From: an uncultured bacterium
GTDB lineage: Bacteria > Patescibacteriota > Minisyncoccia > Phycocordibacterales > DATDWN01
Length of the DNA stretch: 64,000 bases
Direction of reading: 5' to 3'
Assembly: GCA_963727715.1 (NCBI GenBank)
Contig: CAVSGX010000004.1
Coordinates: 8,455-72,454 of the forward strand
The position numbers and the translations under genes are program-made. This document shows, piece after piece, positions 36,655 through 57,702 of this stretch (position 1 is its first letter; each line of letters opens with the position of its first letter). The notes beneath the pieces are model-generated. The model was not told the origin of the DNA. It saw only the letters and a program-made list of their open reading frames with translations, and did no database searches.

Positions 36655-38508
36655 TCAATGCTGTTCAGGTTTATTTTTATCAATTGTGTCGTCCACATTA
36701 AGCACTTTACGCAAAACCTCTTCCGGCACTTCTTTCCCCGACGCTGGCGCGGCTGGGGTTTGGACGATTTCTTTTTTAATTCCGGGTTTTATTTCCGTTT
36801 TTATTTCCGGTTTATTCATAACTTGAGACAGAGCATTTTTCAAACTGGAAATATTTTCCACTGTCGGATTTTTTTTATTTTCACTTGAATTCAGAGTAGA
36901 TAATGAAGCTGTTTGCGCAGTTGGAGGATTCTTATTTGAATCTACTGGTTTTCTCTGCGAAAAAGATTTGTTGCGCAAATCTTCGGTGGCTTTTATAAAA
37001 GCCAACTTATTAGGATCAGGGGTTGCAATTGTTGGAGTATTGTTCTGGTTGTTATATTTCTCTTTCTCACTGAAAGGCTTGTTAAAAATCGGACGATTGT
37101 CGACGCTTCGCTGAGGAGATGCCGGCGCAGATAAGGGCATAGGCGAAAAGCTGGAACGTCCTGTTCCTATATTTCCGTCGCCTTGCCCACCACCAGCCAT
37201 TTTGTCTCTTTGGGCCGATGTCCCCTCTTCATGCCATTTTTTTATTTCTGCCTCGACTTCGCCCCGTGGTCGGGTAAACTGTTTCCACGAGCTTTCCATA
37301 ACTTCTTTTTTGAATGAGACATCCGGCCTAGTAATCGGTGGCATAGTGACAGCTGAAAACGGCGCTGAAGAAACTTCATCGATCATCAATTTCAAATAAA
37401 TTTGGTATTTGCCAAGATTGACCAAATCTTCGGCGGTGAAAGTTGGAGCGAATTCTTTTTCCAAAACTTCAGCATCAAAAGCGCCGACTCGAAATGTGAC
37501 CATGGTGCCAACGTTGCCGAAAACGGCGTCGCGCACTTCCTCTTCCATTTGCTCAATGTACTGATGTGTGATGTTTAAACCTAATTTGTACTTGCGGGCT
37601 TCGGACAAAATGTCGGCAAAAGATTTGTTGGCGAAAGATTGAAACTCGTCCACATACAAATAAAAATTCGGCAGTTTGGCTAATTGCTCTTTGTTTTTGT
37701 CCGCTCGAGACATGGCCGCCAAGTATATTTTTGTGATAAGCATTGAACCAATGAGGTTGGCATTGCCCTCACCAACAAGCCCTTTGGACAAGTTGATGAG
37801 CAATATCTTTTTCTCATCCATAAAATCGCGAATGTCAAAAGATGATTTCGGCTGGCCGATTAAATTTCGGACAAGCGGGTTTGATGTGAATTGTCCGACT
37901 TTGTTTTGAATAGCCGGTGTGGCTTCGGCTGCGTATTTGTCGGTGTATTTGGCAAATTCCTCCGTCCAAAAAGTTTTGACCGATGGATCTTTGATGTTCT
38001 CCACCACTTTTTTGCGATACTCTTTGTCAGCTAACATTCGATTAACACCAAGAAGTGTGGCACCCGGATATTCCAAGAGCGCCAAAAGAGTGTTGTTTAA
38101 AATGTAAGCCATGCGAGCTGACCAAGCATCCACCCAGATTTTCTCAAACGTGGACATGAGGCCGTTGACCACCAGATGTCTTTTGTCCACACCAATATCT
38201 TCCAAGACATTGAAAGAAACTGGATGTTCCAAATCAAATGGCGCGAAATAAAGCACATCTTTGATGCGATTTTCCGGGATGTAATCCAGCAGTTTTTCGG
38301 CCATTGAACCGTGCGGATCTATGACGGCGATACCGTTGCCATTTTGAATATCCTGGATGGCCATATTTTCCAAAAGATTGGACTTGCCAACGCCGGTTTT
38401 GCCGATAACATAAACATGACGCAAGCGATCGCTTTCTTTGATACCAAAACGGATTTTTTTGTTGCGAGCGTCCGTTTCGGCAAAATATGTGATGGGGTTT
38501 GGGTCCAT
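36655..38508 (-). CDS. P-loop NTPase of the FtsK/HerA/TraD (type IV secretion DNA-binding domain-like) class with low-complexity Pro/Ser/Asn-rich C-terminal tail
   Basis: Walker A VIGKTGVGKSNLL, Walker B LYVDEFQSF; no TM segment; 617 aa. Confidence 0.55.
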   Translation of the reverse strand: MDPNPITYFAETDARNKKIRFGIKESDRLRHVYVIGKTGVGKSNLLENMAIQDIQNGNGIAVIDPHGSMAEKLLDYIPENRIKDVLYFAPFDLEHPVSFNVLEDIGVDKRHLVVNGLMSTFEKIWVDAWSARMAYILNNTLLALLEYPGATLLGVNRMLADKEYRKKVVENIKDPSVKTFWTEEFAKYTDKYAAEATPAIQNKVGQFTSNPLVRNLIGQPKSSFDIRDFMDEKKILLINLSKGLVGEGNANLIGSMLITKIYLAAMSRADKNKEQLAKLPNFYLYVDEFQSFANKSFADILSEARKYKLGLNITHQYIEQMEEEVRDAVFGNVGTMVTFRVGAFDAEVLEKEFAPTFTAEDLVNLGKYQIYLKLMIDEVSSAPFSAVTMPPITRPDVSFKKEVMESSWKQFTRPRGEVEAEIKKWHEEGTSAQRDKMAGGGQGDGNIGTGRSSFSPMPLSAPASPQRSVDNRPIFNKPFSEKEKYNNQNNTPTIATPDPNKLAFIKATEDLRNKSFSQRKPVDSNKNPPTAQTASLSTLNSSENKKNPTVENISSLKNALSQVMNKPEIKTEIKPGIKKEIVQTPAAPASGKEVPEEVLRKVLNVDDTIDKNKPEQH

Positions 38509-38587
38509 AATCGTTTATTATTATATCACAGATGATTAAAATCCAAACCACTAAAAGCTCGCCTGATTTTGCTCCGCAAAATCAGAA

Positions 38588-38672
38588 AGTAAAGAAAAAT
38601 TCAAAATTCAAAAACAAAAGAAAAAACAAATCGACAAGAGACAAGCTACCTTTTTGGAAATCACAAGAACGA
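38588..38672 (-). repeat. Conserved 3' flank downstream of the DGR VR/IMH (copy 1 of 3; other copies at 40604..40682 and 43418..43492)
   Basis: aaaattcaaaattcaaaaacaaaagaaaaaacaaatcgacaagagacaagctacctttttggaaatcacaagaac is present after all three target genes. Confidence 0.8.
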
Positions 38673-39650
38673 GCGGGAGAGGCGACCACCCAGAGGCGGA
38701 TGGGAACTGGACGGAGCATCGGCACGGACACCGAGCCGGGAACCGGCGGGGTTCCAATAGGCGCAGACGACACGAAAGGAAGATGGGGCGGTTTTGTCAG
38801 GGTTTGGCACTTTAGACCCGGGCAAAGCGGTCCAGTAGTATAGACCATCTTTCTCGTTTTTGGTGTCTATGTGCTTGCCTGTTTGTTCAAAGATTTTTCT
38901 TTGCAGGATGAGATAATCGGACAGAGTTAGAGATTGGTTCGGAGGCAAGGAGAGAAAGGTTTCAATCTTTTTGTTCAGAGTTTGTTTAAGCTCTGATTGT
39001 TGCCAGAGTTCTTGACTGTGGACTAGAACGATTCTTCTTTTTTTGTCTTCTATTACTCCTTCAAACCCGCCACCCGAGTTGAAATTGCTTCCGGTGTATG
39101 TTTCGTTGTATCCTTCCGACATTTTAGCGTTTAGGTCTGTCAGGTTTGGCAGAGTTTCCGGAATGAGCAGGATTGTGTCAAAACCGTGTTTTTCTATTTC
39201 TTCTCTGATTTGGTCAATGTTTCTTTCCCAGATGTTTTTCATCGTCTCGGAGAAGTCTTTCGGTCTGTCTATGGAGTGGGTTGTGTAAAAGGAAGTAAAG
39301 TATTCTATTTCTTTTTCAATATCTATGGTTATGGTTTCTTTCTTTTCTTCAGTGGTTGTTTTGCCGGTTTTTTCGTCTTTTGTCTCTTCGATATGTTTGT
39401 ATTCCACTTCTAGAGTTGTTGAGGATTTGCCTTCTATCTTTCTTTTGAGAGAACGGCATTGGGAGAGTGTTTCTTTGATTTTCAGGCTTAGTTCTTTCTG
39501 TTTCTCTGTATCTCCGCTCTCAATGGCTTTTAGGAGTTTATCTTTCATTTCTTCGGCCTGAGAGAGCAGGCCTTCCATTACGGTCAAGTCGGCCAGAGCT
39601 TGTTCTTTGGTTGGTGGAGAGTTTGGGATTTTGGGAGATTCGTGGGACAT
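38661..39650 (-). CDS. DGR target protein 1 (329 aa): Glu/Lys-rich coiled-coil N-terminus, conserved ligand-binding-type C-terminal domain ending in the variable repeat
   Basis: C-terminal region is shared with 40671..41660 and with the C-terminus of 43485..45512 (..YNETYTGSNFNSGGGFEGVIEDKKRRIVL..). The VR lies at the extreme 3' end, and the stop follows the IMH-like GC-rich TCGCCTCTCCCGC. Confidence 0.8.
   Translation of the reverse strand: MSHESPKIPNSPPTKEQALADLTVMEGLLSQAEEMKDKLLKAIESGDTEKQKELSLKIKETLSQCRSLKRKIEGKSSTTLEVEYKHIEETKDEKTGKTTTEEKKETITIDIEKEIEYFTSFYTTHSIDRPKDFSETMKNIWERNIDQIREEIEKHGFDTILLIPETLPNLTDLNAKMSEGYNETYTGSNFNSGGGFEGVIEDKKRRIVLVHSQELWQQSELKQTLNKKIETFLSLPPNQSLTLSDYLILQRKIFEQTGKHIDTKNEKDGLYYWTALPGSKVPNPDKTAPSSFRVVCAYWNPAGSRLGVRADAPSSSHPPLGGRLSRSFL
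38674..38771 (-). repeat. DGR variable repeat VR-1 (3' end of target gene 38661..39650)
   Basis: 98-bp match to the TR at 43081..43177; within the TR/VR alignment it differs from the TR only at template adenines (sense strand), apart from one sense-strand T-to-G difference in the IMH-proximal segment; encodes VVCAYWNPAGSRLGVRADAPSSSHPPLGGRLSR. Confidence 0.85.
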
Positions 39651-39666
39651 AATGGATGGATGATAA

Positions 39667-40347
39667 TCAGTCTAATTTTATTAATTTCTTTGTCAGAACA
39701 GGAATTTCTTTTTGAAAAAAAGTTTTGACCGAATTCCAATCAGCGTCAAAAAAGATGACCGGCTCTGGATCGCTTTCGGCATCGTCAAAATAAACCATAC
39801 TTTTCAAGATATGGTGATAGTCGTGAGCCACAGACGGATACTGTCCCGGCAATCGTCTGATAATATTTTCCAGCGGTTCCACATTTTTGGCGCACCAGTA
39901 CAAATCAAAGAAATCTCTTTTTCTGCCTCTTTGCGAGCTGGCGATTATTTTCATCACGGCCACATCCGTTTTATTCAAAATTTTGACAAAACCGTATTCC
40001 AAAAATTTTTGTTTTGGAATAAAAAACGGATAAGCGATAAAACTGATTTTGGTGTCATACAATACGCCATATAAAGTGTTTGGTTCATCAATATCCGTGC
40101 TCCAATTTTCATTGCTTGCAAAACGAGATAACAGTTTCTTTGTTATAAAACTTTTTTCTGTGGTAAAAAAATCCAAATCAACAGATTTGCGATTGCCGGC
40201 CTGCAAAGCTAAGGCGGTGCCACCGGCCAGATACCAGCCTGATTCACTCAGCCATTCTTGGGTTGATAAAAAATCCAGAGCTGTTTTGGTTGATTTGGGT
40301 AAACATGAAAAGTTGATGATATTTAATTTTGAAGTGTCAGTGTCCAT
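39667..40347 (-). CDS. Nucleotidyltransferase AbiEii/AbiGii-family toxin (DUF1814)
   Basis: WYLAGGTALALQAGNRKSVDLDFF matches the AbiEii GGTAL...R.S.DlDf signature; 226 aa. Confidence 0.7.
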   Translation of the reverse strand: MDTDTSKLNIINFSCLPKSTKTALDFLSTQEWLSESGWYLAGGTALALQAGNRKSVDLDFFTTEKSFITKKLLSRFASNENWSTDIDEPNTLYGVLYDTKISFIAYPFFIPKQKFLEYGFVKILNKTDVAVMKIIASSQRGRKRDFFDLYWCAKNVEPLENIIRRLPGQYPSVAHDYHHILKSMVYFDDAESDPEPVIFFDADWNSVKTFFQKEIPVLTKKLIKLD

Positions 40348-40603
40348 AATGCTTTTGTTCTTGGTCTCAAAGACCGTGATGCAGAAACAACTTTTCTCAA
40401 CAATGCCTTGTCATAAAAATTCCAAAGCCAGCGAACCTCATTATCCCTGCCAAAATCTAAAATTCTCTCAATTATATATTGAGCGTTTTTTTCAGTGTCA
40501 ATTCTGCTGACATCGGTGTCCCAAAACAAAGATTGTCTAAATGGCATACCTTCATTATATCAAATTTTGAGACAATATTCAACAAAAATCAAAATGCAAA
40601 AAT

Positions 40604-40682
40604 AAAAAATTCAAAATTCAAAAACAAAAGAAAAAACAAATCGACAAGAGACAAGCTACCTTTTTGGAAATCACAAGAACGA
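40604..40682 (-). repeat. Conserved 3' flank downstream of the DGR VR/IMH (copy 2 of 3)
   Basis: Same 3'-flank repeat family as 38588..38672 and 43418..43492 (aaaattcaaaattcaaaaacaaaagaaaaaacaaatcgacaagagacaagctacctttttggaaatcacaagaac); lies immediately downstream (minus-strand sense) of target 2 and its VR/IMH. Confidence 0.8.
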
Positions 40683-41660
40683 GCGGGAGAGGCGACCACC
40701 CAGAGGCGGATTGGAAATGGACGGATCATTGGCAACGACATTGAGCTGGGAACCGTCGGGGTACCAATGGGCGCAGACGACACGAAAGGAAGATGGGGCG
40801 GTTTTGTCAGGGTTTGGCACTTTAGACCCGGGCAAAGCGGTCCAGTAGTATAGACCATCTTTCTCGTTTTTGGTGTCTATGTGCTTGCCTGTTTGTTCAA
40901 AGATTTTTCTTTGCAGGATGAGATAATCGGACAGAGTTAGAGATTGGTTCGGAGGCAAGGAGAGAAAGGTTTCAATCTTTTTGTTCAGAGTTTGTTTAAG
41001 CTCTGATTGTTGCCAGAGTTCTTGACTGTGGACTAGAACGATTCTTCTTTTTTTGTCTTCTATTACTCCTTCAAACCCGCCACCCGAGTTGAAATTGCTT
41101 CCGGTGTATGTTTCGTTGTATCCTTCCGACATTTTAGCGTTTAGGTCTGTCAGGTTTGGCAGAGTTTCCGGAATGAGCAGGATTGTGTCAAAACCGTGTT
41201 TTTCTATTTCTTCTCTGATTTGGTCAATGTTTCTTTCCCAGATGTTTTTCATCGTCTCGGAGAAGTCTTTCGGTCTGTCTATGGAGTGGGTTGTGTAAAA
41301 GGAAGTAAAGTATTCTATTTCTTTTTCAATATCTATGGTTATGGTTTCTTTCTTTTCTTCAGTGGTTGTTTTGCCGGTTTTTTCGTCTTTTGTCTCTTCG
41401 ATATGTTTGTATTCCACTTCTAGAGTTGTTGAGGATTTGCCTTCTATCTTTCTTTTGAGAGAACGGCATTGGGAGAGTGTTTCTTTGATTTTCAGGCTTA
41501 GTTCTTTCTGTTTCTCTGTATCTCCGCTCTCAATGGCTTTTAGGAGTTTATCTTTCATTTCTTCGGCCTGAGAGAGCAGGCCTTCCATTACGGTCAAGTC
41601 GGCCAGAGCTTGTTCTTTGGTTGGTGGAGAGTTTGGGATTTTGGGAGATTCGTGGGACAT
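40671..41660 (-). CDS. DGR target protein 2 (329 aa); recent paralogous duplicate of target 1
   Basis: Protein is identical to target 1 except within the VR-encoded tail. About 1.07 kb of DNA (40604-41670 vs 38588-39660) is near-identical outside the VR. Confidence 0.8.
   Translation of the reverse strand: MSHESPKIPNSPPTKEQALADLTVMEGLLSQAEEMKDKLLKAIESGDTEKQKELSLKIKETLSQCRSLKRKIEGKSSTTLEVEYKHIEETKDEKTGKTTTEEKKETITIDIEKEIEYFTSFYTTHSIDRPKDFSETMKNIWERNIDQIREEIEKHGFDTILLIPETLPNLTDLNAKMSEGYNETYTGSNFNSGGGFEGVIEDKKRRIVLVHSQELWQQSELKQTLNKKIETFLSLPPNQSLTLSDYLILQRKIFEQTGKHIDTKNEKDGLYYWTALPGSKVPNPDKTAPSSFRVVCAHWYPDGSQLNVVANDPSISNPPLGGRLSRSFL
40684..40781 (-). repeat. DGR variable repeat VR-2 (3' end of target gene 40671..41660)
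   Basis: Encodes VVCAHWYPDGSQLNVVANDPSISNPPLGGRLSR. Within the TR/VR alignment all differences from the TR are at template adenines (sense strand), apart from one sense-strand T-to-G difference in the IMH-proximal segment. Confidence 0.85.
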
Positions 41661-41672
41661 GGAAGTATTCTA

Positions 41673-42700
41673 TCATGTTATAACAATATCATTCAATATT
41701 GAAGTCAGTTTGTTTTTTAATCCAAATGAATCGCAGTGTTTCAGTAAAGCAAAATAAGACTGAAAATTATTCTTGTTCATTCTTTCAAAAATTTTTTGCT
41801 TGGTTTTATCTCTCAATAAAAGACAATCTGGCAAAGTCAGAGATCCTAGAAAATCTACTCCCCATTTTAATTTTCTGATTGAGATTTTATCATCCGGGAT
41901 TTGCAGAAACAGTTTTGCCATAAATTTTTTAATTTCAACCAAACAAAACCCCAATCTTTTTTTATTTTTATTTACCAAAATAAAATCGTCGTTGTATCTT
42001 ATATAAAATCTGGCGTTTAATTTTTTCTTCACAAAATGGTCAAAATCGTTCAAATAAATGTTGGCGAAAATCTGGCTGGTGATGTTGCCGAGCGGGATGC
42101 TTTTGTCAGAGCCATGAAGCGAGCAAAAACTTTCTACTATTTTCCCCACTTCCAAAAAAATATTTTCATTTTTCACTTTTCTTTTGATAAATTTCAGCAG
42201 TAGGCGGTGGTTGACACTTTCAAAGTATTTTTTGACATCGCATTTTAAAATAAAAACATCCCCATTTTTTCTTTTCGCCAATCCATTGAAATATTGGAGA
42301 GTTTTGACGGCTTTATGCGTTCCTTTTCCGTCTCTGGATGAATAACGGCTTTATGCGTTCCTTTTCCGTCTCTGGATGAATATGAGTCGGCAATAAATGC
42401 CGGCTCAAATAGATTTTTCAAATAATCGGATATTATTTGATGAATAATTCTATCTTTAACTTCAGCTTTGTGAATATTTCTTTTCTTGTTGTCAGTAACA
42501 ATAAAATGCGAATACCCGCCATGGCGGTAAGTTTTGTTTTTCAGATCTCTGTGCAAATCAAAAATATTGTCTTCCAAATGTCTTTCAAAAATCATTACAT
42601 CCATCTTGGAGGACTTTCCCCGCCGAAATTTCCGCCAAGCTGAAAATATATTATCAAGACTGAATAATTCGTTATAATTTTTATGGAACAAGACGCTCAT
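41673..42700 (-). pseudogene. DGR reverse transcriptase, reading frame broken by a 38-bp tandem duplication (ORF track pieces 42245..43024 and 41673..42281)
   Basis: N-terminal piece: LFSLDNIFSAWRKFRRGKSSKMDVMIFERHLEDNIFDLHRDLKNKTYRHGGYSHFIVTDNKKRNIHKAEVKDRIIHQIISDYL...DSYSSRDGKGTHKAV (DGR-RT motifs 1-2). C-terminal piece: ILKCDVKKYFESVNH, IPLGNITSQIFANIYLNDFD, YIRYNDDFIL (YxDD). Deleting one copy of the 38-bp unit fuses the two pieces in frame to ...GKGTHKAVKTLQYFNGLAKRKNGDVFILKCDVKKYF.... Confidence 0.85.
42307..42382. repeat. Perfect 38-bp direct tandem duplication (2 copies) inside the RT gene
   Basis: acggctttatgcgttccttttccgtctctggatgaata occurs twice in tandem; 38 is not divisible by 3, so this is a frameshift. 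Confidence 0.9.
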
Positions 42701-43057
42701 AAAATTGAAAAATTGGAAATGCCTATTATGGCCAAACTCTTTATCATTTACGAACTGACGCACAAGCTTATTTTCAAATTGCCGAAATTTGAAAGATACA
42801 CTTTGGGTGAAAAAATTGAAAATATCATCTTGGAAACGATTGAAATAATTGTCATCGCCAATGGGACGAACAAATACGAAAAAGAAAAATATTTGCTCAA
42901 AGCCAATGCCAAAGTGGAAATGCTTAAGTTGCTTTTTCGCATCGTTTTGAACTGCCAAATCATTGATTTCAAAAAATATTTGGAGGCGGAAGGGTTGCTT
43001 CAAGAAATCGGCAAAATGGCGCAAGGTTGGATAAAATACACCAGAAACGCAAAATAG
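42683..43057 (+). CDS. avd: Avd (accessory variability determinant; four-helix-bundle protein, bAvd/23S-rRNA-IVP family), transcribed divergently from the RT; likely start at Met 42719
   Basis: KLFIIYELTHKLIFKLPKFERYTLGEKIENIILETIEIIVIANG...LLKANAKVEMLKLLFRIVLNCQII...EAEGLLQEIGKMAQGWIKY matches the four-helix-bundle family pattern (FPK.E.Y.L..Q..R...SI..NIAEG......f...A.GS..El...l..a..l.yi......l......igkml.gli). The antisense strand here gives only a Phe-rich nonsense extension of the RT ORF. Confidence 0.7.
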   Translation: MEQDAHKIEKLEMPIMAKLFIIYELTHKLIFKLPKFERYTLGEKIENIILETIEIIVIANGTNKYEKEKYLLKANAKVEMLKLLFRIVLNCQIIDFKKYLEAEGLLQEIGKMAQGWIKYTRNAK

Positions 43058-43080
43058 CTTTTGTATAAAGCAAGAACGGC

Positions 43081-43177
43081 GGGAGAGGCGACAACCCAGA
43101 TTCGGATTGGAATTGGACGGATCATTGGCATTGACATTGAGCTGGGAATTGTCGGGGTTCCAATTGGCGCAGACGAC
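43081..43177 (-). repeat. DGR template repeat (TR), noncoding, between the VR-bearing main target gene and avd/RT
   Basis: Sense strand reads ..VVCA NWNPDNSQLNVNANDPSNSNPNLGCRLSR with 9 AAT (Asn) codons and no in-frame stop context. IMH*-like end TCGCCTCTCCCGCCGTTCTTGC differs from the VR IMH ends (..CCCGCTCGTTCTTGTGA). Confidence 0.85.
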
Positions 43178-43417
43178 TGCGGTCGCCCCTCGATTAGCTT
43201 TGCGTCGTCATTTCCGTTTGGAAACAAGACTCTATTTATTAGGGGCTACTTCCCCCTGACGCAAAACTGCTGTTCTTGTGTTTTATTTCCACAAATCAAC
43301 GACTATTTGGTTTCTAAAATTCAGAAACCATCTTTCGCCGTCAATTAGCGCTTCGGCAAACCAACTCATCACTGATGGCTTACGAGCCGAAGCGGGCGAT
43401 TTTTGCTTCGCAAAAAT

Positions 43418-43492
43418 AAAAAATTCAAAATTCAAAAACAAAAGAAAAAACAAATCGACAAGAGACAAGCTACCTTTTTGGAAATCACAAGA
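43418..43492 (-). repeat. Conserved 3' flank downstream of the DGR VR/IMH (copy 3 of 3)
   Basis: Same 3'-flank repeat family as 38588..38672 and 40604..40682 (aaaattcaaaattcaaaaacaaaagaaaaaacaaatcgacaagagacaagctacctttttggaaatcacaagaac); lies immediately downstream (minus-strand sense) of the main AAA+ target and its VR/IMH. Confidence 0.8.
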
Positions 43493-45512
43493 ACGAGCGG
43501 GAGAGGCGACAACCCAGATTCGGATAGGAATAGGACGGATCATCGGCACCGACAACGAGCTGGGAATAGCCGGGGTCCCAATGGGCGCAGACGACGCGGA
43601 AACCGCCGGATGGATTTTTGACTGTTGAGCCGGGTAGCCATGTCCAACCGTCTTCATCCAAATGTTTGCCTGTTTGTTCAAAATATTGCTTTTGATACAA
43701 CAAATAATCTGTCAGAGACATTTTTTCACCTTGCGATATAAACTCCTCGGCTTTTTTATTCAGAGTTTTCTTCAGTTCCGAATGGTCTTTCAGATTTTGA
43801 GCGCTGTTTTTATGAATCAAAACGATTCTTCTTTTTTTGTCTTCTATTACTCCTTCAAACCCGCCACCCGAGTCGAAATTGCTTCCGGTGTATGTTTCGT
43901 TGTATCCTTCTGACATTTTTTTATGTATATCGGTTATGGTCAATCCTCCGGGCACAAGCAAAATCTCATCAAAACCATATTTTTCTACTTCTTGTTTTAT
44001 CTCGTCATAATTGTTCACCCATATATCCGCCATTTCTTCCGCAAATGATTCCGTCAATTCAATTTCGTGAGCTTTATAAAAAAGAAGAGAATCCTCAAGT
44101 TTTTTGTCAAAATTTATTTCTATTTTCTCTTTCTTTTCTTTGCCTTTCTCGTCCACGATTTTGTGTTCGGCAGAAACCACCGGTTCAAACGAACTGCCGG
44201 TCAATTCTCTTCTTTTACTTCTGAAAAATTTCTCCAAATCGGCTATTTCATTTTCAATCTTCTCTATCCCGTCCGCCGGACTTTCGGTTTTACCACCTTC
44301 AGGAATTGCCTCAGCAGACGCTTCTTTTTCTTCTTCGTTATTTTTCTTTTTTCTTTTCGTTCCTTTGCGTTTGGAATCTTTGGTTTCTATTTTGACTTCA
44401 ACCAATCGGATGATTTCTTCCAATTTTGTTCTGTCTTCGGCGCTTTCCAGTCTGTTGACATAATAATATTTCAGGGCTTTTTGAAAAGTTTCGCTGATGT
44501 CGCCATTGTAAAAACGCAAAACAAAATTTCTGACCCGCCTCGGCTCTTCGCGGTCGTCATAGGTGAAAACTTGTGGTTGATCTTCGGCGATTTGCCTGTT
44601 TTTCAAAAGTTCTTTGGCGGTTTTGTGAAATTCCTTGTATTTTTCCAAAATTTCGGCAATGCCTGGAATTTCCGAAAGTTGTTCCTGCGTCAAACCACCG
44701 GCGCCGGATAAAAACATATCATCAGGCAATTCGGCGGTTTTCTTTTCCAAACCGTTCTCTAAACCAAACAATGCACCAGTCGCTTGCTTAAAGGTCTCTT
44801 CCGGTAATTCATTTGGCATTTTTTTATAAACCCATCTGCGAAGCTGAGCTGGATCAAGTGGCTTTCTATCCAAATAACCGGCTCCCGGAGGATTCATAAA
44901 AGCGATGATTTTGGTTTTTTGTTTAGAAACTTTAACTGTTTCCGAAGCGTCTTCTGACAAAATGACATCGCTATCACGCTCCAGAGAATCCAAAACTTCA
45001 TGCAAACGAATCAAAATGTTCGGCGCCGATGAGTTGAATTCGTCCAAAACAATAATTTTGACTTTACCGTCTTCCTGTCGTAAACCGCTAGTTACTTTTC
45101 CGTCGGCGAAAATGTATTCCGGGTCTTCCGCATTATTTTTACGAGGATTTGGTATATATCGGCCCATCAAATCCTCCACATCCGTGGCACCGTTTAAGTT
45201 TATGTAATGAACTTCGTAGCCGAGCTCACTGGCCATTTTTCGCACCGTGGTGGTCTTACCAAAAGATGTTCCGCTTTCCACGGCAATAGGGTCGCCCATG
45301 GAAAACGACACGGCGATGTCACGTTGCAGTGGCAGAGCCACTTCGGTATCATTGGTGTAGTCCTTGTAATTTTCTCTTCTTGGCACAAATTGGCCATTTC
45401 TGTTTTTAGCTTTTTCCAGAGTAACACCCATATAAGAAACACTCCCGTCAGTTTCCATTATCGGCTCCAGTTTTGCTTCCGGATTGTTAAATTGTCCTTC
45501 TGGTGTTTTCAT
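43485..45512 (-). CDS. DGR main target: AAA_5/MoxR-type AAA+ ATPase fused to a long acidic linker and the conserved DGR-diversified C-terminal domain (675 aa)
   Basis: Walker A VESGTSFGKTT, Walker B KIIVLDEFN, sensor region ..IIAFMNPPGAGYLDRKPLDPAQLRRW. The C-terminal 170 aa is homologous to targets 1 and 2 and ends in VR-3. No signal peptide or TM segment. Confidence 0.85.
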   Translation of the reverse strand: MKTPEGQFNNPEAKLEPIMETDGSVSYMGVTLEKAKNRNGQFVPRRENYKDYTNDTEVALPLQRDIAVSFSMGDPIAVESGTSFGKTTTVRKMASELGYEVHYINLNGATDVEDLMGRYIPNPRKNNAEDPEYIFADGKVTSGLRQEDGKVKIIVLDEFNSSAPNILIRLHEVLDSLERDSDVILSEDASETVKVSKQKTKIIAFMNPPGAGYLDRKPLDPAQLRRWVYKKMPNELPEETFKQATGALFGLENGLEKKTAELPDDMFLSGAGGLTQEQLSEIPGIAEILEKYKEFHKTAKELLKNRQIAEDQPQVFTYDDREEPRRVRNFVLRFYNGDISETFQKALKYYYVNRLESAEDRTKLEEIIRLVEVKIETKDSKRKGTKRKKKNNEEEKEASAEAIPEGGKTESPADGIEKIENEIADLEKFFRSKRRELTGSSFEPVVSAEHKIVDEKGKEKKEKIEINFDKKLEDSLLFYKAHEIELTESFAEEMADIWVNNYDEIKQEVEKYGFDEILLVPGGLTITDIHKKMSEGYNETYTGSNFDSGGGFEGVIEDKKRRIVLIHKNSAQNLKDHSELKKTLNKKAEEFISQGEKMSLTDYLLYQKQYFEQTGKHLDEDGWTWLPGSTVKNPSGGFRVVCAHWDPGYSQLVVGADDPSYSYPNLGCRLSRSFL
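43496..43593 (-). repeat. DGR variable repeat VR-3 (3' end of the AAA+ target gene)
   Basis: Encodes VVCAHWDPGYSQLVVGADDPSYSYPNLGCRLSR. It differs from the TR at 12 positions, all corresponding to TR adenines. Confidence 0.85.
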
Positions 45513-45515
45513 ATT

Positions 45516-45917
45516 TTATGAACGATAAACCGGCCCAACTTTGTCTATAATTTCAAAACTTCTTTCTTTCAATTTCGCCAAAACGCTTTCCGTAGCGACC
45601 AAAACCAAAACCTGACTTTGATAATCAGGTGAAAAAACTTTTGATTCATTTTTTTCTTTATCAAAAATCTCAACTTGACCTGTCGGATACTGCGCGACAA
45701 AATCATATAAGTCCTTCGGTAGATTTTCGTCCAAAACCAGATACATTTTTTGAAAACCAAAAAAATCAAAAACATTTTTTGATGTTTGAAATCCACTATC
45801 TTCAAAAAACTTGATAAAACCACCCATCTCGCTTTCATCCCGCGCCAAAACAAGTCCGACATCTTTTTGTCCTTTCAAGATATCCAGAAACTCATGCAGA
45901 CCTTCGTTTTTGTTCAT
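45516..45917 (-). CDS. Hypothetical small protein (133 aa) between the VWA partner and the AAA+ DGR target
   Basis: Complete ORF; 4-bp gap to the downstream gene suggests co-transcription. Confidence 0.5.
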   Translation of the reverse strand: MNKNEGLHEFLDILKGQKDVGLVLARDESEMGGFIKFFEDSGFQTSKNVFDFFGFQKMYLVLDENLPKDLYDFVAQYPTGQVEIFDKEKNESKVFSPDYQSQVLVLVATESVLAKLKERSFEIIDKVGPVYRS

Positions 45918-45956: not shown

Positions 45957-48242
45957 TCAACCAACAACTTCTTTCTCAAGTATTTCTGATATATCTTTTA
46001 TTATTTTGTCCACTTTTATATTATCGGATTTTAGCGGGTAATAAATAAGCTTTACACCGCCGGCTTTTTCGATTTTGCCTTTAATTTTTTGAAAATCATA
46101 TTTTGAGCCGGGATGTTTAGTGGATTCAGCTGGTCTGTCATCCGAAAAAACAATCATTATTTTGTTGTCTGTTTTTTGTTTTGCAAGTCTTGCCGAAGCG
46201 GTTTCCATAGCCCAACCAATGTCGGTTTCATTATGCTCATTTCCGCAATTTTTGCAACAACTATCTTCAACCTCTTTAAACATTCCTCCCATGTGTTCCC
46301 TGATTTTTTTTGACATTGGCTCTCCAAATTTTTGATACTCGTATATATCATCATTAAAACCGTTAATTTCAACGTTCAATCCTAGTTTGTTTAATGCTTC
46401 AGCCAGCACAACTTTTGCTTTGAAATCTTCTTCAATTTTTTTACGCATAGAACCAGATAAATCGTTTAGAATGGAAATTGAATATTCTTTTTCATCTGGT
46501 TTTTCTCTTTTTTGCCAAGCGTTGCTTTCTATTGGCGAAATGCGTCTGGCTTTTTCCTGAATCCTTGTTTTTATATCAATTCTTTTGCCTATTCTAAAGC
46601 CCTTTTTCCATCTTGTGGTTTGGGTGTCAACAAATATCTGTCTTAGTTTATTTTCCAATTCATCAATCAGCGACGAAACTTCTCGTCGGTGCTTTTCATA
46701 AATATTTTCGTCTTTATTGACTTCTCTTTTTAATCTTTCTTTGTATATTCTCAATCCTTCCAAATCAAGAGGTTCTTTTCTTAAAGTTCCGGTTCTGACC
46801 GGAGCGCCGCCTTGATTTTGATTGTTTATTTCAACCCCTGGCAAATTTTCCGGCGGTTCTGGATTTTTTCTTTCTGCTTTTTCCTCCGGATTTTCAGTCA
46901 ATTTGCCTTCCATTTCTTCGTTTAGTTTGTCTTCAAATTCCTTCAGCGCTTTTTCGGCTCTGTCGGCCAGCTCTTTTTTCACATCTTCCGGAAGCGAGTC
47001 GACATAATCCCTTATTTTTTGTTTTATTTCGTCGGAAAGGTCGTTCAGGTTTATTGTCCTCGCACCGATATCGTCTAGCGTCTGTGGTTGTTCATTGCCG
47101 GTGTTGTCTTCGTGTGGAGTCGGCTTGTTTGTGATTTTATCTTCTCCCTGCCCACCTGTTGACATTGGTTTGATTTTTTCTTTCTCTTTTTTTGCTTCAT
47201 CAATAGCTTTGTCAATAGCATTTTCCAACGTTTTCTTTTCTTCTTCGGTTAATTTGTCTTCCAAATCTTTTGGCAGTTTTGATTTTTTTTCATTTTTTTT
47301 ATCTTCACTTTCTCCTTCCTGATTTCCGTTATCTTTTTGTCCATCACCACCTTCCTTCCCATTTTCTCTTTCTTGCTCTTTTTTCATTTCTTCCATCATC
47401 TTTTTCATCACATCTTTCAACACTTCTTCCATTTTCTCATCCTCTTTATCTGCTTCAACCAGTTTTTTAAATTCTGGCCAAATTTCTTCCAGATTTATTT
47501 CATACGACACTTTGGCGTATTCTTTTATTTTTTCTTCACTTTCATCCGCTTCCTCTCGCGACGGATATCGCCACCAAGAATCCTGAGCTGATTTCAGTGT
47601 GGCTAAAACAACAGCTTTGACTTCTTCGGGCAAATCTTCCGAAATTTCAAAATTCTGTCCCTGTTTTTCACGAAACCATTGTCTAATATATTCATACCCC
47701 GCTTGCACAAAACGCGGTTGGAAACCCAGTTTTTCGGTAGCTTCTTTCTTTTCTTTTTCTCTTTTGGCAAAAAAATCATCCCAAGCAAATTTTATATTTT
47801 CATCGTATTTCGGATAACTCTCGGAAACAAAGTTGTCGTTTCTGGGATCTTCAATGAAATTCATCATAGCTGAAAAGCCCGGTTGTCGCCATGTTTCAAT
47901 CGGAATAAAATCTGTTCTGGAAACTCGTCTATGTCCTCCTTCGTGACAAATTAAATATCTCAATAATTCAATTGGCTCCGTCAGCAGAGTTTTCGGGTCA
48001 ACTCTGATGACATTTTTTTGAAAATCCCAATGCCAGCCAGCGCCTGGTTGGTTTAGTTCTATCGGCATCTCAAAATCTTTGCCAATAAAATAAGCCAGAG
48101 ATGACAAAATATTTTTCTTGCGCAGAATTTCTTTTTGTTCTTCTTCGTTAAATCGCTTCAAGATTTCCTCTTCTGGATTTTGCCGGAGAGAATCGTAGGT
48201 TTGTTCGTTTTGATTGAATTTTGGTCCTTCCATAATTTGCAA
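45957..48242 (-). CDS. Putative zinc metallopeptidase (HExxH) N-domain, Glu/Lys-rich low-complexity linker and C-terminal VWA (MIDAS) domain; DUF2201-like AAA-partner architecture
   Basis: LICHEGGHRRVS (HExxH); central 300 aa of E/K-rich repeats; C-terminal ..ISILNDLSGSMRKK.. (DxSxS MIDAS) ...IMIVFSDDRPAEST... Confidence 0.75.
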   Translation of the reverse strand: MQIMEGPKFNQNEQTYDSLRQNPEEEILKRFNEEEQKEILRKKNILSSLAYFIGKDFEMPIELNQPGAGWHWDFQKNVIRVDPKTLLTEPIELLRYLICHEGGHRRVSRTDFIPIETWRQPGFSAMMNFIEDPRNDNFVSESYPKYDENIKFAWDDFFAKREKEKKEATEKLGFQPRFVQAGYEYIRQWFREKQGQNFEISEDLPEEVKAVVLATLKSAQDSWWRYPSREEADESEEKIKEYAKVSYEINLEEIWPEFKKLVEADKEDEKMEEVLKDVMKKMMEEMKKEQERENGKEGGDGQKDNGNQEGESEDKKNEKKSKLPKDLEDKLTEEEKKTLENAIDKAIDEAKKEKEKIKPMSTGGQGEDKITNKPTPHEDNTGNEQPQTLDDIGARTINLNDLSDEIKQKIRDYVDSLPEDVKKELADRAEKALKEFEDKLNEEMEGKLTENPEEKAERKNPEPPENLPGVEINNQNQGGAPVRTGTLRKEPLDLEGLRIYKERLKREVNKDENIYEKHRREVSSLIDELENKLRQIFVDTQTTRWKKGFRIGKRIDIKTRIQEKARRISPIESNAWQKREKPDEKEYSISILNDLSGSMRKKIEEDFKAKVVLAEALNKLGLNVEINGFNDDIYEYQKFGEPMSKKIREHMGGMFKEVEDSCCKNCGNEHNETDIGWAMETASARLAKQKTDNKIMIVFSDDRPAESTKHPGSKYDFQKIKGKIEKAGGVKLIYYPLKSDNIKVDKIIKDISEILEKEVVG

Positions 48243-53281: not shown

Positions 53282-54296
53282 CTTTGAAGTAGGACAGTTA
53301 GAATTAATGCATTAGTCGAAAATTAATTTTAATTGTCATATGAAAAACAAATATCATCATTTGTCTTTTGAAGAGAGGTTTTGTATTGAAAAGATGTATT
53401 GCGCCGGTTCGGCCATTCGCAAAATTGCCGAATTTCTCGGTCGGAGTGTCAACACTGTGAGCAGAGAAATACAAAAACACAGTGTTAATGGGGTGTATGA
53501 AGCGGAAAAAGCCAAGCAGAAAGTTTCAATGAAAAGATGGCGAGCCAAACAGCAGTGTCTGAAAGTGGCGCTTGACCCGTTTCTCTGTCGATTCGTGGTG
53601 GAACGATTAACCAAGCCGTATCATTGGTCGCCGAAGCAGATTAGCGGGTATCTTGAATGTGAAATGGGTATCATCTGCTCGGCCAAAGCCATATACAAAT
53701 TTGCCGAGTCGAGAGGTCTAAACCACCTGCTTTTTTGGGGTTGGAACAATCACAAGGGTGGGAGAAAACGAAATCATTGGAAGCACATTCAGGATGGCAG
53801 GAAGTATATTGATGTCAGACCGGAGAGAAAAGGTCTAGGACACATTGAGCTCGATTTCATCGTTTCCAAAGACAGTTCGTGGGTACTTTTGGTTGCTGTG
53901 GATTGGCAAGCCAAAAGAACATGGGTCAGGAAACTGCCCAACAGAAAACGCGACACTATTCGTGCCGCGCTTTCCCGTCTGTTCCATGGTGTTGAATTGA
54001 AGAGCATCACCACAGACAACGATATTGCATTCACCTGTTGGAAAGAGTTGGAAACTCTCCTGCAAGTGCCAATCTATTTTACACATCCATACCATTCTTG
54101 GGAAAAAGGTCTGGTGGAAAACACCAACAGATGGATCAGATGTTTTGTGCCTAAACGAAGAGATATTGAGTCAGTCACTGAGGAAGAATTGCAAGAAATA
54201 CATTCCTTCCTAAACAACCGACCGAGAGAAGTGATTGGCTTCCGCGCGCCAATGAGTTATTATTCAAACATTAGTTCTGTCCTACTTGAGGGGTAA
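53282..54296 (+). mobile_element. IS30-family insertion sequence (about 1.0 kb) with imperfect terminal inverted repeats
   Basis: IRL cctttgAAGTAGGACAGttagaatTAATG (53282-) against IRR reverse complement cctcAAGTAGGACAGaacTAATG (ending about 54292). Single transposase ORF inside. Confidence 0.8.
53340..54296 (+). CDS. IS30-family DDE transposase
   Basis: N-terminal HTH (HLSFEERFCIEKMYCAGSAIRKIAEFLGRSVNTVSREI), DDE core with ..FTHPYHSWEKGLVENTNRWIRCFVPK... Confidence 0.85.
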   Translation: MKNKYHHLSFEERFCIEKMYCAGSAIRKIAEFLGRSVNTVSREIQKHSVNGVYEAEKAKQKVSMKRWRAKQQCLKVALDPFLCRFVVERLTKPYHWSPKQISGYLECEMGIICSAKAIYKFAESRGLNHLLFWGWNNHKGGRKRNHWKHIQDGRKYIDVRPERKGLGHIELDFIVSKDSSWVLLVAVDWQAKRTWVRKLPNRKRDTIRAALSRLFHGVELKSITTDNDIAFTCWKELETLLQVPIYFTHPYHSWEKGLVENTNRWIRCFVPKRRDIESVTEEELQEIHSFLNNRPREVIGFRAPMSYYSNISSVLLEG

Positions 54297-54353
54297 TTGG
54301 AGGACACACCTCCATTAAATAAAATATCACAATAAAATAATAAAGTCAAATTG

Positions 54354-54427
54354 TGCGCGTGCCAGGACTCGAACCTGGGACCTCGTCATTATCAGTGACG
54401 TGCTCTAGCCACCTGAGCTACACGCGC
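54354..54427 (-). tRNA. tRNA-Ile (anticodon GAT), no encoded CCA
   Basis: Reverse complement GCGCGTGTAGCTCAGGTGGCTAGAGCACGTCACTGATAATGACGAGGTCCCAGGTTCGAGTCCTGGCACGCGCA folds as a cloverleaf with anticodon loop CUGAUAA. Confidence 0.9.
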
Positions 54428-55605: not shown

Positions 55606-56425
55606 GGATCTCCCAGGGTCATTTATATTTCTGTTCCAAACATCCGAATCGAGATTTTCGATAAGATTTATCGTGTGCTTCCTTCTGACTCACCGCAGAA
55701 GTCGCACATCTCTTTTTTTTGATTCGGCTGCTCTTTGCTACTAGGATCCTTCAGTCCAGTCATTGCTGATTGTGGACCTACCCGTTCGCTATTTTCACAC
55801 TCCTGTGAAAAGTTGGATTTGAACCAACTAGATATATAAACTGCCTGGCGCATTTTATTCTGAGTACAAGACTTGAGAACGTATTCACCGCGGTATGTCT
55901 GACCCGCGATTACTAGCAATTCCAACTTCATGGGGTCGAGTTTCAGCCCCCAATCTGAACTGGGGCGACTTTTCTAAGGATTGGCTCAGGGTTACCCCGT
56001 CGCAACCTGTTGTAGTCGCCATTGTATTATGTGTGTAGCCCAAGGTATCAAAGGGACATGCTGATCTGGCGTCATCCTCGCCTTCCTCCCAGCTCCAGTT
56101 GCGCAAGATGAACGAACTCGGTTAAGACCGAATACGGACATCGATGTTTGCACAGAGAGACATCTACTTATGATGTTCTTGTGCAACTGGAGCTGGGCAG
56201 TCTCGCCTGATACTTATAACAGACAACGAGGGTTGCGTTCGTTACCCCACTTAAGGGAACAATTCAAATCACGAACTGACGACGACCATGCATCACCTGC
56301 CTAACTGTCCTTGTGGGACCGCAAACGTTTCTGCTTGCATTCAGTTAGGTTTCAAACCTTGGTAAGATTCTTCGTTTATCATCGAATTAAACCACATAAT
56401 CCACTGCTTGTGCAAGTCCCCGTCT

Positions 56426-56457
<32 letters not shown>

Positions 56458-56641
56458 ACCCAGGCGCTTGACTTAACGCGTTAGCTACGCCACGCAGAGG
56501 GTCGATACTCCGCATAGCTAGTCAAGATCGTTTAGGGCGTGGACTACTGGGGTCTTAATGTTACTTCAAAATTTTGGGAAATTTTGAGGCACAACATTTC
56601 TGTTGTACTCTGCATGTTGCCATGCAGTTCGGACTATATCT

Positions 56642-57403
56642 TTATCTGTATGTATTCCACTTAGCTTTTTTCTTTTCATATTCTGCTATTATGACAGATT
56701 CTGAAAAATTACTAAGAGAAACCATTTCAGATATCCAGCGTTCTTGAAATTGAGAGTTTTTATATAGAAGAATTGCTTTGGATAACATGCTCGATACTGG
56801 TATGTATGGCAGTATGATACGCAAGAATTTTTTTAATTCTTCTTGTGACCTAATCCATAACCGCCAGTATTGTTCTTGCTTCCCATCTTGCTTACGCCCG
56901 ACGGGGGCAACAATGGCACGAACATCCCAAACAACTTTAAGATAGCGAGCTAGCATTTCGACTGATTGTTTTGAAAAACCATCAGTACAAAACACACCTT
57001 TTCTGGCGCCGTAACCAATAAGCGAACCGTCATCACACCACCAAACGGCGAGTGATAACGCTGTCATTTGATTAAGCCACCTACGCTCTATAAGCAATTT
57101 ATTTTGTTTGTGAGTTAAATGATGAAGTTCTGTAAGAGATGAAGTTCGCCTACTGGCAAATCTCCATTTTTTGTTCTTACTGTATCCATCAGGTTCCTGC
57201 ACAAACACACTGCTATCTCCTGCTATCTCTTTGAGAGCTTGCGCTTTCCATAAGAGATAATCTTTCTGCATTTCCGAATGACGAATTTGTAAATTCGCAT
57301 TGAAATAATTTTTTTGGATTTTTAGCGAGCCGTCTCCAAGGATTGAACCGAAGATAATAGCTTTCGCTTCATCCGACAAAGGCACATATTTCGTATCATG
57401 CAT
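56642..57403 (-). CDS. LAGLIDADG-family homing endonuclease (double-motif) encoded within 16S intron 1
   Basis: IIFGSILGDGSL and LAVWWCDDGSL are two LAGLIDADG motifs; 253 aa. Confidence 0.85.
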   Translation of the reverse strand: MHDTKYVPLSDEAKAIIFGSILGDGSLKIQKNYFNANLQIRHSEMQKDYLLWKAQALKEIAGDSSVFVQEPDGYSKNKKWRFASRRTSSLTELHHLTHKQNKLLIERRWLNQMTALSLAVWWCDDGSLIGYGARKGVFCTDGFSKQSVEMLARYLKVVWDVRAIVAPVGRKQDGKQEQYWRLWIRSQEELKKFLRIILPYIPVSSMLSKAILLYKNSQFQERWISEMVSLSNFSESVIIAEYEKKKAKWNTYR

Positions 57404-57480
57404 ATAATTTTAAGTTAATTGCACGACGACAGAATAGCACCAACTATCTTACTCAATTTCATAGTCTCTACGGGGTTTCT

Positions 57481-57702
57481 AGCACTAATTTTTGGAGTCA
57501 AGCTTTGACTTGACAAGATTCATTTTATGATTTAACATCAATTCCAGGAGATTAACTCGATGGAATTTATTATGATATTGATCTGTTTAGGAGTTTTTTG
57601 TTTGATCACAGATATGATGATAACTGTTGCTATTGATATCTGTGAATGGATCGATCATTACCTGCACCGGCTTTTATAGCGGTGCAGTTTTCTTTTTCCA
57701 AA
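57481..57702 (+). mobile_element. Second copy of the TIR cassette (same AGCACTAATTTTTGGAGTCAAG terminal repeat), inside 16S intron 1 and antisense to the rRNA
   Basis: TTGACA (57510) -N17- TAACAT, AGGAG (57546), ATG 57560, terminator ctgcaccgg-cttttatag-ccggtgcag followed by a T-run; the interior differs from copy 1. Confidence 0.6.
57560..57679 (+). CDS. Small hydrophobic peptide (39 aa) MEFIMILICLGVFCLITDMMITVAIDICEWIDHYLHRLL
   Basis: RBS AGGAG 10 nt upstream; one TM helix plus a short polar tail; same cassette architecture as 55427..55534. Confidence 0.5.
   Translation: MEFIMILICLGVFCLITDMMITVAIDICEWIDHYLHRLL

Follow-up and report, generated by a model that had tools for sequence, protein, structure and literature searches.

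The window analysed here is a 64,000-nt stretch of contig CAVSGX010000004.1 (assembly GCA_963727715.1) from an uncultured bacterium of the Patescibacteria, or candidate phyla radiation (CPR), and the subject of this report is the diversity-generating retroelement (DGR) that it carries. A structured RNA of about 230 nt, conserved in related elements, was found directly 5' of the template repeat (TR) of this DGR, and one of its segments pairs with the TR 3' end. The locus is probably a chromosomal DGR of the CPR 'B3' type, in the order target, RNA, TR, avd (reversed), reverse transcriptase (RT) and further targets; its identity as a DGR is practically certain. The upstream RNA is, on the covariation recorded below, very probably a real structured RNA family, and it appears undescribed: no description of an upstream or permuted DGR RNA was found in the open-access and bioRxiv literature searched. 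To our knowledge, DGRs are the only natural systems of targeted protein hypermutation in prokaryotes. They are under development as in vivo mutagenesis tools, CPR bacteria are among the lineages richest in them, and knowledge of their mechanism rests on one phage element, BPP-1. The features of the locus are collated in Table 1.

Table 1. Features of the DGR locus and of its partner genes (positions in the window)
Feature	Position	Strand	Remarks
TR	43079-43177	-	99 nt of strict homology between TR and variable repeats (VRs); non-coding; between avd and structured RNA
TR including 3' end GCCGTTC (43080-43074)	43074-43177	-	3' end pairs with J segment
VR1	38673-38771	-	16 mismatches to TR, 15 at TR adenines
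VR2	40683-40781	-	10 mismatches to TR, 9 at TR adenines
VR3	43497-43595	-	11 mismatches to TR, 11 at TR adenines
VR 3' flank, 78 nt	43419-43496, 40605-40682, 38595-38672	-	identical after all three VRs
Structured RNA	43163-43394	-	about 230 nt, directly 5' of TR and overlapping its start; covariance model R1 172.8 bits, E 5e-44
P1	43392-43386/43357-43351	-	RNA helix
P2	43380-76/43363-59	-	RNA helix
P4	43342-37/43303-298	-	RNA helix
P3	43330-23/43315-08	-	RNA helix
J segment GAACAGC	43275-43269	-	immediately 5' of P5
P5	43268-58/43206-196	-	11-bp RNA helix
P6	43256-53/43245-42	-	short stem-loop
P7	43224-20/43215-11	-	RNA helix
Pre-TR strand	~43191-43182	-	pairs with GC-rich TR part (P9)
avd	42683-43057	+	Pfam bAvd 1.4e-17, 64.5 bits against a cut-off of 40
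DGR RT gene, disrupted	41673-42700	-	N-terminal part 42700 to ~42345; C-terminal 202-aa ORF 42281 to 41673, other frame
38-bp perfect tandem duplication	42307-42344/42345-42382		2 x ACGGCTTTATGCGTTCCTTTTCCGTCTCTGGATGAATA (+ strand); RT frameshifted at codon 107
Main target, 675 aa	43485-45512	-	N-terminal MoxR/dynein-type AAA_5 (Pfam 5.4e-12), linker, C-terminal variable domain ending in VR3
Target 2, 329 aa	40671-41660	-	coiled-coil, beta-hairpin, CLec-like domain; VR2 at 40683-40781
Target 1, 329 aa	38661-39650	-	VR1 at 38673-38771; one copy of the 1056-bp duplication
Main-target partner, 133-aa protein	45516-45917	-	without family match
Main-target partner, 761-aa vWA-domain protein	45957-48242	-	CobT_C/VWA Pfam matches, 1.4e-6
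DUF6922	40323-40547	-	Pfam 9.9e-18; between the two small targets
AbiEii nucleotidyltransferase toxin	39667-40347	-	Pfam 3e-14, PADLOC AbiEii 1.4e-9; between the two small targets

A repeat search recovered a 99-nt family with four copies, namely the TR and the three VRs, each VR being the 3' end of a minus-strand target open reading frame (ORF). An earlier reading by a model that saw only the letters and a list of ORFs (the original prediction) had proposed a complete DGR with one TR and three VRs and had suggested that the mismatches be tabulated by TR base. When this was done, 35 of the 37 differences were found on TR adenines, which make up 21 of the 99 TR bases (hypergeometric p=4e-12 for VR1, 1.5e-6 for VR2 and 3e-9 for VR3); an even spread over A, C, G and T was not seen. 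The only non-adenine change, T85->G (Cys->Gly), is common to VR1 and VR2. Read in frame, the TR gives VVCANWNPDNSQLNVNANDPSNSNPNLGCRLSR and is thus as rich in Asn as had been predicted. The predicted GC-rich ends resembling an initiation-of-mutagenic-homing (IMH) site were likewise found: TR and VRs share the end GTCGCCTCTCCCGC, after which the VRs continue with TCGTTCTTG and the TR with CGTTCTTGC (1-nt indel). Both an IMH (VR end) and a non-identical IMH* (TR end) are therefore present in the window locus, and in related loci GCCGTT stands in the TR where the VR has GCAGTT. Paralogous gene ends that diverged by ordinary point mutation or gene conversion, with an RT nearby by coincidence, would suit the facts that the targets are paralogs and that the locus contains duplications. 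Such a reading would have to place 35 of 37 differences on 21 adenines by chance, and it accounts neither for a non-coding TR lying between avd and a structured RNA, nor for the same adenine bias in 27 related loci, nor for a duplicated sequence of 1056 bp whose copies differ only within the VR. It was regarded as refuted by the bias in the window and its relatives and by the VR-only divergence of the 1056-bp copies, and its probability is negligible.

The minus-strand gene order (675-aa target, TR, avd on the opposite strand, RT, two 329-aa targets) was read from the ORFs and agrees with the original prediction, whose divergent avd is the standard B3 arrangement. Related loci were collected by an RT-alignment scan of species-representative genomes, which retrieved 80 loci, nearly all under the titles of Patescibacteria/CPR metagenome-assembled genomes; avd lies head-to-head and directly upstream of RT in about 60 of those CPR loci, same-strand avd genes being confined to a few non-CPR loci. 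The B3 architecture, TR-(avd reversed)-RT, is matched by the window locus and is shared with these roughly 60 CPR loci and with the closest relatives, L003-L005, in which the RT is 63% identical and the whole layout is kept (AAA_5 target, TR, reversed avd, intact 327-aa RT, 318-aa target, DUF6922, AbiEii, second 318-aa target). The TR/VR mismatches of these relatives fall on adenines in 12/12 and 13/14 cases. B3 is the architecture of 90% of CPR DGRs (Wu et al. 2018, PMC5758913). The window element resembles the CPR/DPANN B3 elements of that survey in gene order, avd orientation, CPR-type host and multiple targets, and also in the A-to-N pattern at Asn codons and in having an AAA target of the P-loop/Midasin type, like the targets of the 'UVR4'/category g1 class; it differs in its frameshifted RT. 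As an element it adds a member to an established CPR DGR type, and the DGR call alone is ordinary for such a genome. Published CPR DGR surveys covered genes and repeats, unlike the present analysis, in which the RNA of about 230 nt 5' of the TR was added. The setting of the element is chromosomal, with SecA, GatB, SecD, pyruvate kinase and many glycosyltransferases encoded in the window.

The TRs of 25 CPR DGRs could be aligned although their RTs are only 44-68% identical to the window RT (repaired as described below). The TR consensus of the 25 loci (alignment columns 290-380) reads ...AACTGGAATCC.GAC.AT...CAGCTCAATGT.AATGCCAATGA...AATCT.GG..CG.C.CTCCCGC.GTT, and this alignability implies that the same VR scaffold is kept while the N-terminal target parts differ. 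In L003 (GCA_037134875.1) the VRs at 842-954, 3542-3654 and 5488-5600 are identical to each other and to the VR at 9129-9241 of L004; they differ in L005, the ENA assembly of the same element as L003. The identity of the VRs in L003 and L004 is probably a consensus collapse during assembly rather than biology.

The stretch of about 300 nt between main target and TR, which the original prediction had treated as empty, is conserved between the window and L003 and contains the structured RNA. Matches upstream of the TR were obtained with nhmmer in 19 loci, and their alignment held many compensatory changes. On a 14-sequence MAFFT alignment, a structure of 38 pairs had 93.8% of cells paired, compared with at most 51% when the strands were slid, and 16 pairs changed on both sides, compared with 2-9 in the slid controls. 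RNAalifold, applied to the first MAFFT alignment, recovered P1, P2, P5 and P8 only; P3 (a variable hairpin) and P4 at full length, recognised by visual inspection of the alignments, stand outside the covariance model and the formal counts. The covariance model R1 (223 positions) was then searched in 82 sources and gave 30 full-length matches, each in the RT-sense orientation and a short distance upstream of avd/TR, including 11 full-length loci outside model building, with RT identity down to about 44%. In the R1 alignment 28 of the 38 pairs showed compensatory changes (176 cells against at most 37 slid), and with J, P5 and P9 included the structure was 92.9% paired on a structure-blind MAFFT alignment, with 23 compensatory pairs and 137 cells against at most 24 slid. 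The abundance of G-U pairs fixes the strand of the RNA. The R1 model runs 14-29 nt into the TR in 27 of 28 loci, and in each of these the VR mismatches are adenine-specific. The RNA always follows a target gene, and each locus gives one R1 match, distal VRs without an adjacent TR not carrying the RNA. For the window, the constrained fold (-117.0 kcal/mol) is essentially equal in energy to the minimum free energy structure (-117.7 kcal/mol). No Rfam 15 family matched at gathering score anywhere in the window, and only chance-level matches (E 1.6 and 2.8) were returned within 42600-43600. Neither a P7 extension (GTAT/ATAC) nor a GGAAA:TTTCC pseudoknot was retained, as both lacked covariation. 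Since R1 marks the TR directly, it could serve to locate TRs in fragmentary metagenomic contigs.

The RNA is tied to the TR by two helices. The J segment pairs over 7 bp with the TR 3' end, and the two strands change together in the classes GAAC[A/U]GC/GCCGTTC, AAACAGC/GCTGTTT, AAACTAC/GTAGTTT and AAAACTGC/GCAGTTTT. On a MAFFT alignment that had not been fitted to the structure, this helix was 90.9% paired, compared with 25-48% when slid, and three of its seven pairs were compensatory (21 cells against 0-2 slid). In the second helix, P9, the partner of the pre-TR strand GAGGGGCGAC is GTCGCCTCTC (~43094-43085), the IMH-like, GC-rich stretch of the TR. Cognate duplexes were more stable than non-cognate ones (P9 -22.9 against -18.4 kcal/mol; J -6.8 against -4.3 kcal/mol), the TR 3' ends being anchored by alignment columns, and the observed value was reached in 0 of 5000 permutations for both J and P9, a test that is inflated by the relatedness of the loci. 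In the structure model the TR forms a loop that emerges from a three-way junction of J, P5 and P9.

The order of these elements was compared with that of the BPP-1 RNA. In BPP-1 the DGR RNA runs from the avd 3' end through the TR into 'Sp' (Handa et al. 2018 NAR, PMC6182149). According to the cryo-EM structure of bRT-Avd-RNA (bioRxiv 10.1101/2023.10.23.563531), TR117-129 pairs with Sp47-56 by seven canonical pairs and A56 primes; a two-nt linker follows, of which G57 is required; Sp59-70 and avd369-379, just upstream of the TR, form the 11-bp 'cPRT Stop' duplex; and a short stem-loop (Sp71-78) and unpaired adenosines making A-minor contacts come next. The CPR RNA has a counterpart to each: seven base pairs joining the TR 3' end to a 'primer' strand (J), a short linker (invariant AG, compared with GC in the BPP-1 record), an 11-bp duplex with a segment upstream of the TR (the P5 3' arm, about 20 nt upstream), and a short stem-loop (P6) followed by unpaired adenosines (UGAUAAAUAGAG). 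Both RNAs also have a non-standard third pair, counted from the priming end (U54.C120 in BPP-1; a mismatch in 12/25 CPR loci). Unlike in BPP-1, where it is 3', the whole primer/stop domain would lie 5' of the TR in the CPR elements, an extra helix (P9) closes the TR loop, and the two RNAs have no detectable sequence or covariance-model similarity. If the Sp 3' end is joined to the avd-side strand and the RNA is cut between TR and Sp, the BPP-1 order becomes the CPR order, which is to say that the two are related by circular permutation. The BPP-1 layout itself, TR then Sp, is not found in the window, where the stop codon of the inverted avd lies within about 20 nt after the TR.

By this analogy the upstream RNA is rather likely to play the part that 'Sp', located 3' of the TR, plays in BPP-1, while the specific assignment of primer and stop to its helices is put at even odds. 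That B3-type DGRs use a circularly permuted DGR RNA, with primer, stop and protein-binding domain all 5' of the template, would be equally a matter of one chance in two. In such an RNA, probably transcribed by read-through from the upstream target gene, J and the TR 3' end would form the template:primer duplex at the three-way junction (J, P5, P9), and priming would occur from the 3'-terminal nucleotide of J or from the adjacent invariant A/G. The stop element would consist of P5, with its 3' arm close upstream of the TR, together with P6 and the A-rich stretch. The resulting cDNA would replace the VR sequence upstream of the GC-rich IMH-like end, in recipients that would be marked by a conserved 3' flank that only VRs have, including its GTAGCTTG-type motif. 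A permuted RNA would also explain why the inverted avd follows directly after the TR in B3 elements. The pairing of the upstream RNA with the TR 3' end thus offers a testable, covariation-supported model of priming and termination for the B3 class, for which earlier analyses assumed a downstream Sp. If the permutation is true, it would suggest that the essential DGR RNA elements are modular and tolerate permutation, which would be useful for the engineering of compact DGR RNAs.

Several observations weigh against this model. Putative Avd-binding stem-loops have been described downstream of the TR across taxa, CPR included (Handa et al., bioRxiv 10.1101/2023.10.23.563531). One J pair is mismatched in 12/25 loci, and the J/TR-3' covariation falls into about four classes that follow phylogeny and so represents few independent events. 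The local hairpin P8, placed at the 5' boundary of the TR, has a strand in common with P9, so that at most one of the two can form at a time. No convincing promoter was found for the RNA/TR, the counts of a sigma-70/terminator scan being no higher than the shuffled expectation. Neither BPP-1 nor any of 46 DGR loci at a greater distance gave an R1 match, and a general occurrence of the RNA across B3 DGRs would accordingly find no support in the R1 scan. The RNA ends, the priming nucleotide and the roles of the helices are assigned by analogy only.

The upstream RNA might, instead of being a primer/stop domain, serve the target mRNA as a 3'-UTR or stability element, control TR transcription as a leader, or provide a binding platform; the true Sp-like element would then lie antisense to avd on the 3' side of the TR, the side on which it is found in BPP-1. 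For this speak the constant position of the RNA behind a target gene, the derivation of its priming role from analogy, and the report of putative Avd-binding stem-loops and stop duplexes in 207/278 DGRs with Avd homologs, CPR members among them (Handa et al.), in a survey that took in 40 nt of sequence 5' and 100 nt 3' of the TR (bioRxiv 10.1101/2023.10.23.563531). The RNA is, on the other hand, continuous with the TR (overlap of model end and TR start in 27/28 loci); two of its strands covary with the TR 3' end; its elements follow the BPP-1 order of primer, linker, stop, stem-loop and A-rich stretch; and it is missing from distal VRs without an adjacent TR, at one match per locus. Downstream of the TR, the sequence is constrained by avd coding on the other strand, the TR ending 5-20 nt from the avd stop codon in related loci. 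A role of the RNA outside priming and termination was therefore considered improbable, and a primer/stop domain 5' of the TR was preferred.

In more distant B3 loci that gave no R1 match (L050, L062, L060, L052, L057, L067 and L070), conserved non-coding blocks were also observed upstream of the TR. In a crude duplex search of 15 distant loci, the strand most complementary to the TR 3' end was located some 60-100 nt 5' of the TR in 7; these may hold diverged versions of the same RNA, for which the duplex search is only suggestive.

Two other classes of RT-associated RNA were considered for comparison. Retron msr-msd RNAs are alike in having a structured priming domain 5' of the template, with the RT gene downstream, and in the pairing of the template 3' end back beside the proposed priming nucleotide, as in a1/a2. 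They are unlike the window element in that its RT belongs to the DGR clade, that Avd and TR/VR homing are present, and that a 2'-5' branch and msDNA are retron features, the window being known from sequence alone. The RT-10 motif corresponds to the BPP-1 Sp and is a structured RNA that was assigned to DGRs and proposed as primer (Weinberg et al. 2017, PMC5737381). It shares with the window RNA its structured nature and proposed primer role; the window RNA differs in lying upstream of the TR and in matching no Rfam 15 family at E <= 5.

The Avd and RT proteins were examined by the profile searches that the original prediction had suggested. Besides the bAvd match (Table 1), the Avd protein matched NCBIfam DivGenRetAVD (5e-19, 68.5 bits, below the curated cut-off of 80). 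Because this alignment begins at residue 13, the start of avd is likely to be Met13 at 42719; from Met1, avd would overlap the RT start head-to-head by 18 nt (42683-42700). In several relatives (L006, L009, L010) tblastn alignments cross the avd/RT overlap, and a sigma-70-like site, TTATCA-16-TATAAT (42651-42678), faces avd from within the RT 5' coding region. The RT frame is divided into two ORFs by the 38-bp duplication, a break that the original prediction had missed, and the element can therefore not be called complete as assembled. Deletion of one 38-bp copy restores an RT of 329 aa with the motifs LGNITSQ and YNDD, which matches RVT_1 at 2.2e-22. Its best match among PDB sequences was bRT of Bordetella phage BPP-1 (8ub7, E 6e-28, residues 6-290), with group II intron RTs ranking behind (1.5e-17); the NCBIfam group II model scored it at 134 against a cut-off of 300, NCBIfam being without a DGR-RT model. 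The predicted placement in the DGR clade is borne out by the LGNITSQ motif and the bRT match, and a grouping with retron or group II RTs was not seen. All full-length homologs, of which the best are 68% and 63% identical, have 324-336 aa and cover 97-99% of the repaired RT; homologs sit in loci with TR, VR and avd.

By its reading frame, the RT is predicted to be inactivated in the assembled genome, and this copy would currently be unable to diversify its targets unless an intact allele coexists. An independent Logan contig (run ERR11594402) corresponds to window 42353-43439. Its start lies 30 nt before the end of copy 2 of the duplication, where a de Bruijn graph with k=31 is expected to branch, so that the reads must contain k-mers of the copy-copy junction; at 43439 the contig ends 30 nt inside the 87-nt repeat of the VR flank. 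This assembly break indicates that the duplication is real in at least part of the population. The frameshift could be confined to that part, a point that counts against reading the element as inactivated. The element might even be fully functional, the duplication being an assembly artefact or a minority allele and the RT of the population intact. A perfect and therefore very recent duplication, recent activity seen in the divergence of the VRs of two otherwise identical targets at 12 positions, and an intact RT of 324-336 aa in every close homolog are in keeping with this, and the k-mer graph cannot tell 'duplication only' from 'duplication plus intact allele'. The junction k-mers required by the break at 42353 stand against it, as does the search of 5.8 billion clusters, in which an identical intact RT was not found and only the split product, the 202-aa C-terminal fragment of a deposited 204,555-bp contig, was represented. 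A fully functional element was accordingly judged rather unlikely. On the preferred reading, the locus is a DGR caught just after inactivation, with a frameshifted RT and with diverged VRs in identical gene copies.

The past activity is recorded in the two small targets. The duplication of 1056 bp (38595-39650 and 40605-41660) spans exactly the region from the target ATG to 66 nt past the stop codon, and its copies are 100% identical except at 12 positions, all within the VR (TR positions 13-70). Mutagenic homing must thus have acted after duplication or homogenisation. VR1 and VR2 have in common the three changes nearest the 3' end relative to the TR, A76C, A77C and T85G (the last not at an adenine), from which it follows that neither VR has been overwritten beyond about position 70-76 since their common ancestor. 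Conversion tracts that stop short of the 3'-most ~25 nt of VR1 and VR2 are unexpected if the 3' boundary is fixed at the IMH. L003 also carries two small-target copies that are identical to each other, and the small-target copies suggest concerted evolution or a repeated, cassette-like duplication.

The conserved 3' flank of the VRs, predicted at 85 bp, is real at all three VRs, but its length is 78 nt for the three together and 87 nt for VR2 and VR3. The 78 nt comprise the last four codons (TCG TTC TTG TGA) and 66 non-coding nt containing GGTAGCTTGTCTCTTG. In most related loci examined, a GTAGCTTGTAGCTTGA-like direct-repeat motif was seen 10-25 nt after the VRs, distal ones included, and it was not seen after the TRs in most of them. 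No GC-rich hairpin or inverted repeat was found in the 78-nt flank, in which the GGTAGCTTG... motif is present; the flank thus differs from that of BPP-1 in having a GTAGCTT direct-repeat motif instead of a GC-rich inverted repeat. Such inverted repeats occur in only 34% of DGRs (Wu et al. 2018, PMC5758913) and are for that reason not obligatory. The TR has no such flank, so that the flank cannot be homogenised by homing, and its unchanged presence at three gene ends that otherwise differ suggests that it is selected for as a recipient-site element, which we infer to be a functional analogue of the BPP-1 hairpin. The 6-nt core of the motif is complementary to AAGCUA of the upstream RNA; a pairing of AAAGCUAA in the RNA with the GTAGCTT motif of the flank was considered and rejected as unsupported by covariation.

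The C-terminal ~235 aa of the main target are homologous to the 329-aa targets, while ungapped sequence identity between large and small targets upstream of the VR is at chance level. The variable domain is modelled, on that of target 2, as a C-type-lectin/FGE-like fold whose C-terminal end is formed by the VR. The 329-aa family is rare (16 clusters among 5.8 billion); for these targets, the variable domain and the 133-aa protein no family was found in Pfam, PADLOC or NCBIfam, and a target-family profile search against PDB sequences found nothing. Midasin/AAA-linked 'UVR4' variable regions were left without an assigned fold (Wu et al. 2018, PMC5758913). An N-terminal signal sequence was not obvious in the targets on inspection by eye. 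The diversified proteins are probably cytoplasmic ligand-binding modules of a MoxR-vWA type system, to judge from their domains and neighbours, and the targets are plausibly intracellular sensors of invaders.

DGR-linked MoxR-vWA (VMAP) ternary conflict systems with a lectin-fold domain fused to the vWA protein have been described (Kaur et al. 2020, PMC7159879). The window locus resembles them in combining a putative MoxR-type AAA+ protein, a vWA protein and a DGR-diversified FGS/C-type-lectin domain in one operon, with a putative toxin-antitoxin (TA) pair adjacent. In contrast to those systems, which have the FGS on the vWA component and occur mostly in cyanobacteria and gammaproteobacteria, the window locus belongs to a CPR bacterium and has the domain on the AAA+ protein; its third component is the 133-aa protein without family match, and two free-standing coiled-coil-CLec paralogs are diversified as well. 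The link between DGR-diversified lectin-fold domains and MoxR-vWA systems would by this locus be extended to CPR bacteria. A module of vWA protein (with or without the 133-aa protein) and AAA5 target also lies upstream of the DGR in L018, L024, L006 and L046.

The upstream partner of AbiEii, a type IV TA toxin, is DUF6922 and not a recognised AbiEi. The DUF6922 and AbiEii pair occupies the same position in L003 (3756-4636) and L005 (3428-4308) and a different one in L024 (135-1021), so that it stands beside a DGR/target module in three lineages.

The gene next to target 1 on its downstream side encodes a coupling ATPase of 617 aa that resembles TraG/VirD4/TrwB (36655-38508, minus strand; T4SS-DNA_transf 1.2e-8, HerA/DUF87, PADLOC mad8 2e-12); no other conjugation genes were seen, and the surroundings are otherwise of the housekeeping and glycosyltransferase kind. 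An insertion that encodes a LAGLIDADG homing endonuclease and interrupts the 16S rRNA gene is a CPR hallmark. In the window, the 16S rRNA gene (55812-58592, minus strand) is split into two Rfam matches, 57762-58592 and 55812-56668, and the insertion carries a LAGLIDADG ORF at 56642-57403 (Pfam 5.3e-32). The gene is followed by tRNA-Ile(GAT) at 54353-54427, and an IS30-like transposase gene (53340-54296, plus strand; HTH_38 1e-15 plus rve) adjoins the tRNA-Ile and rRNA genes.

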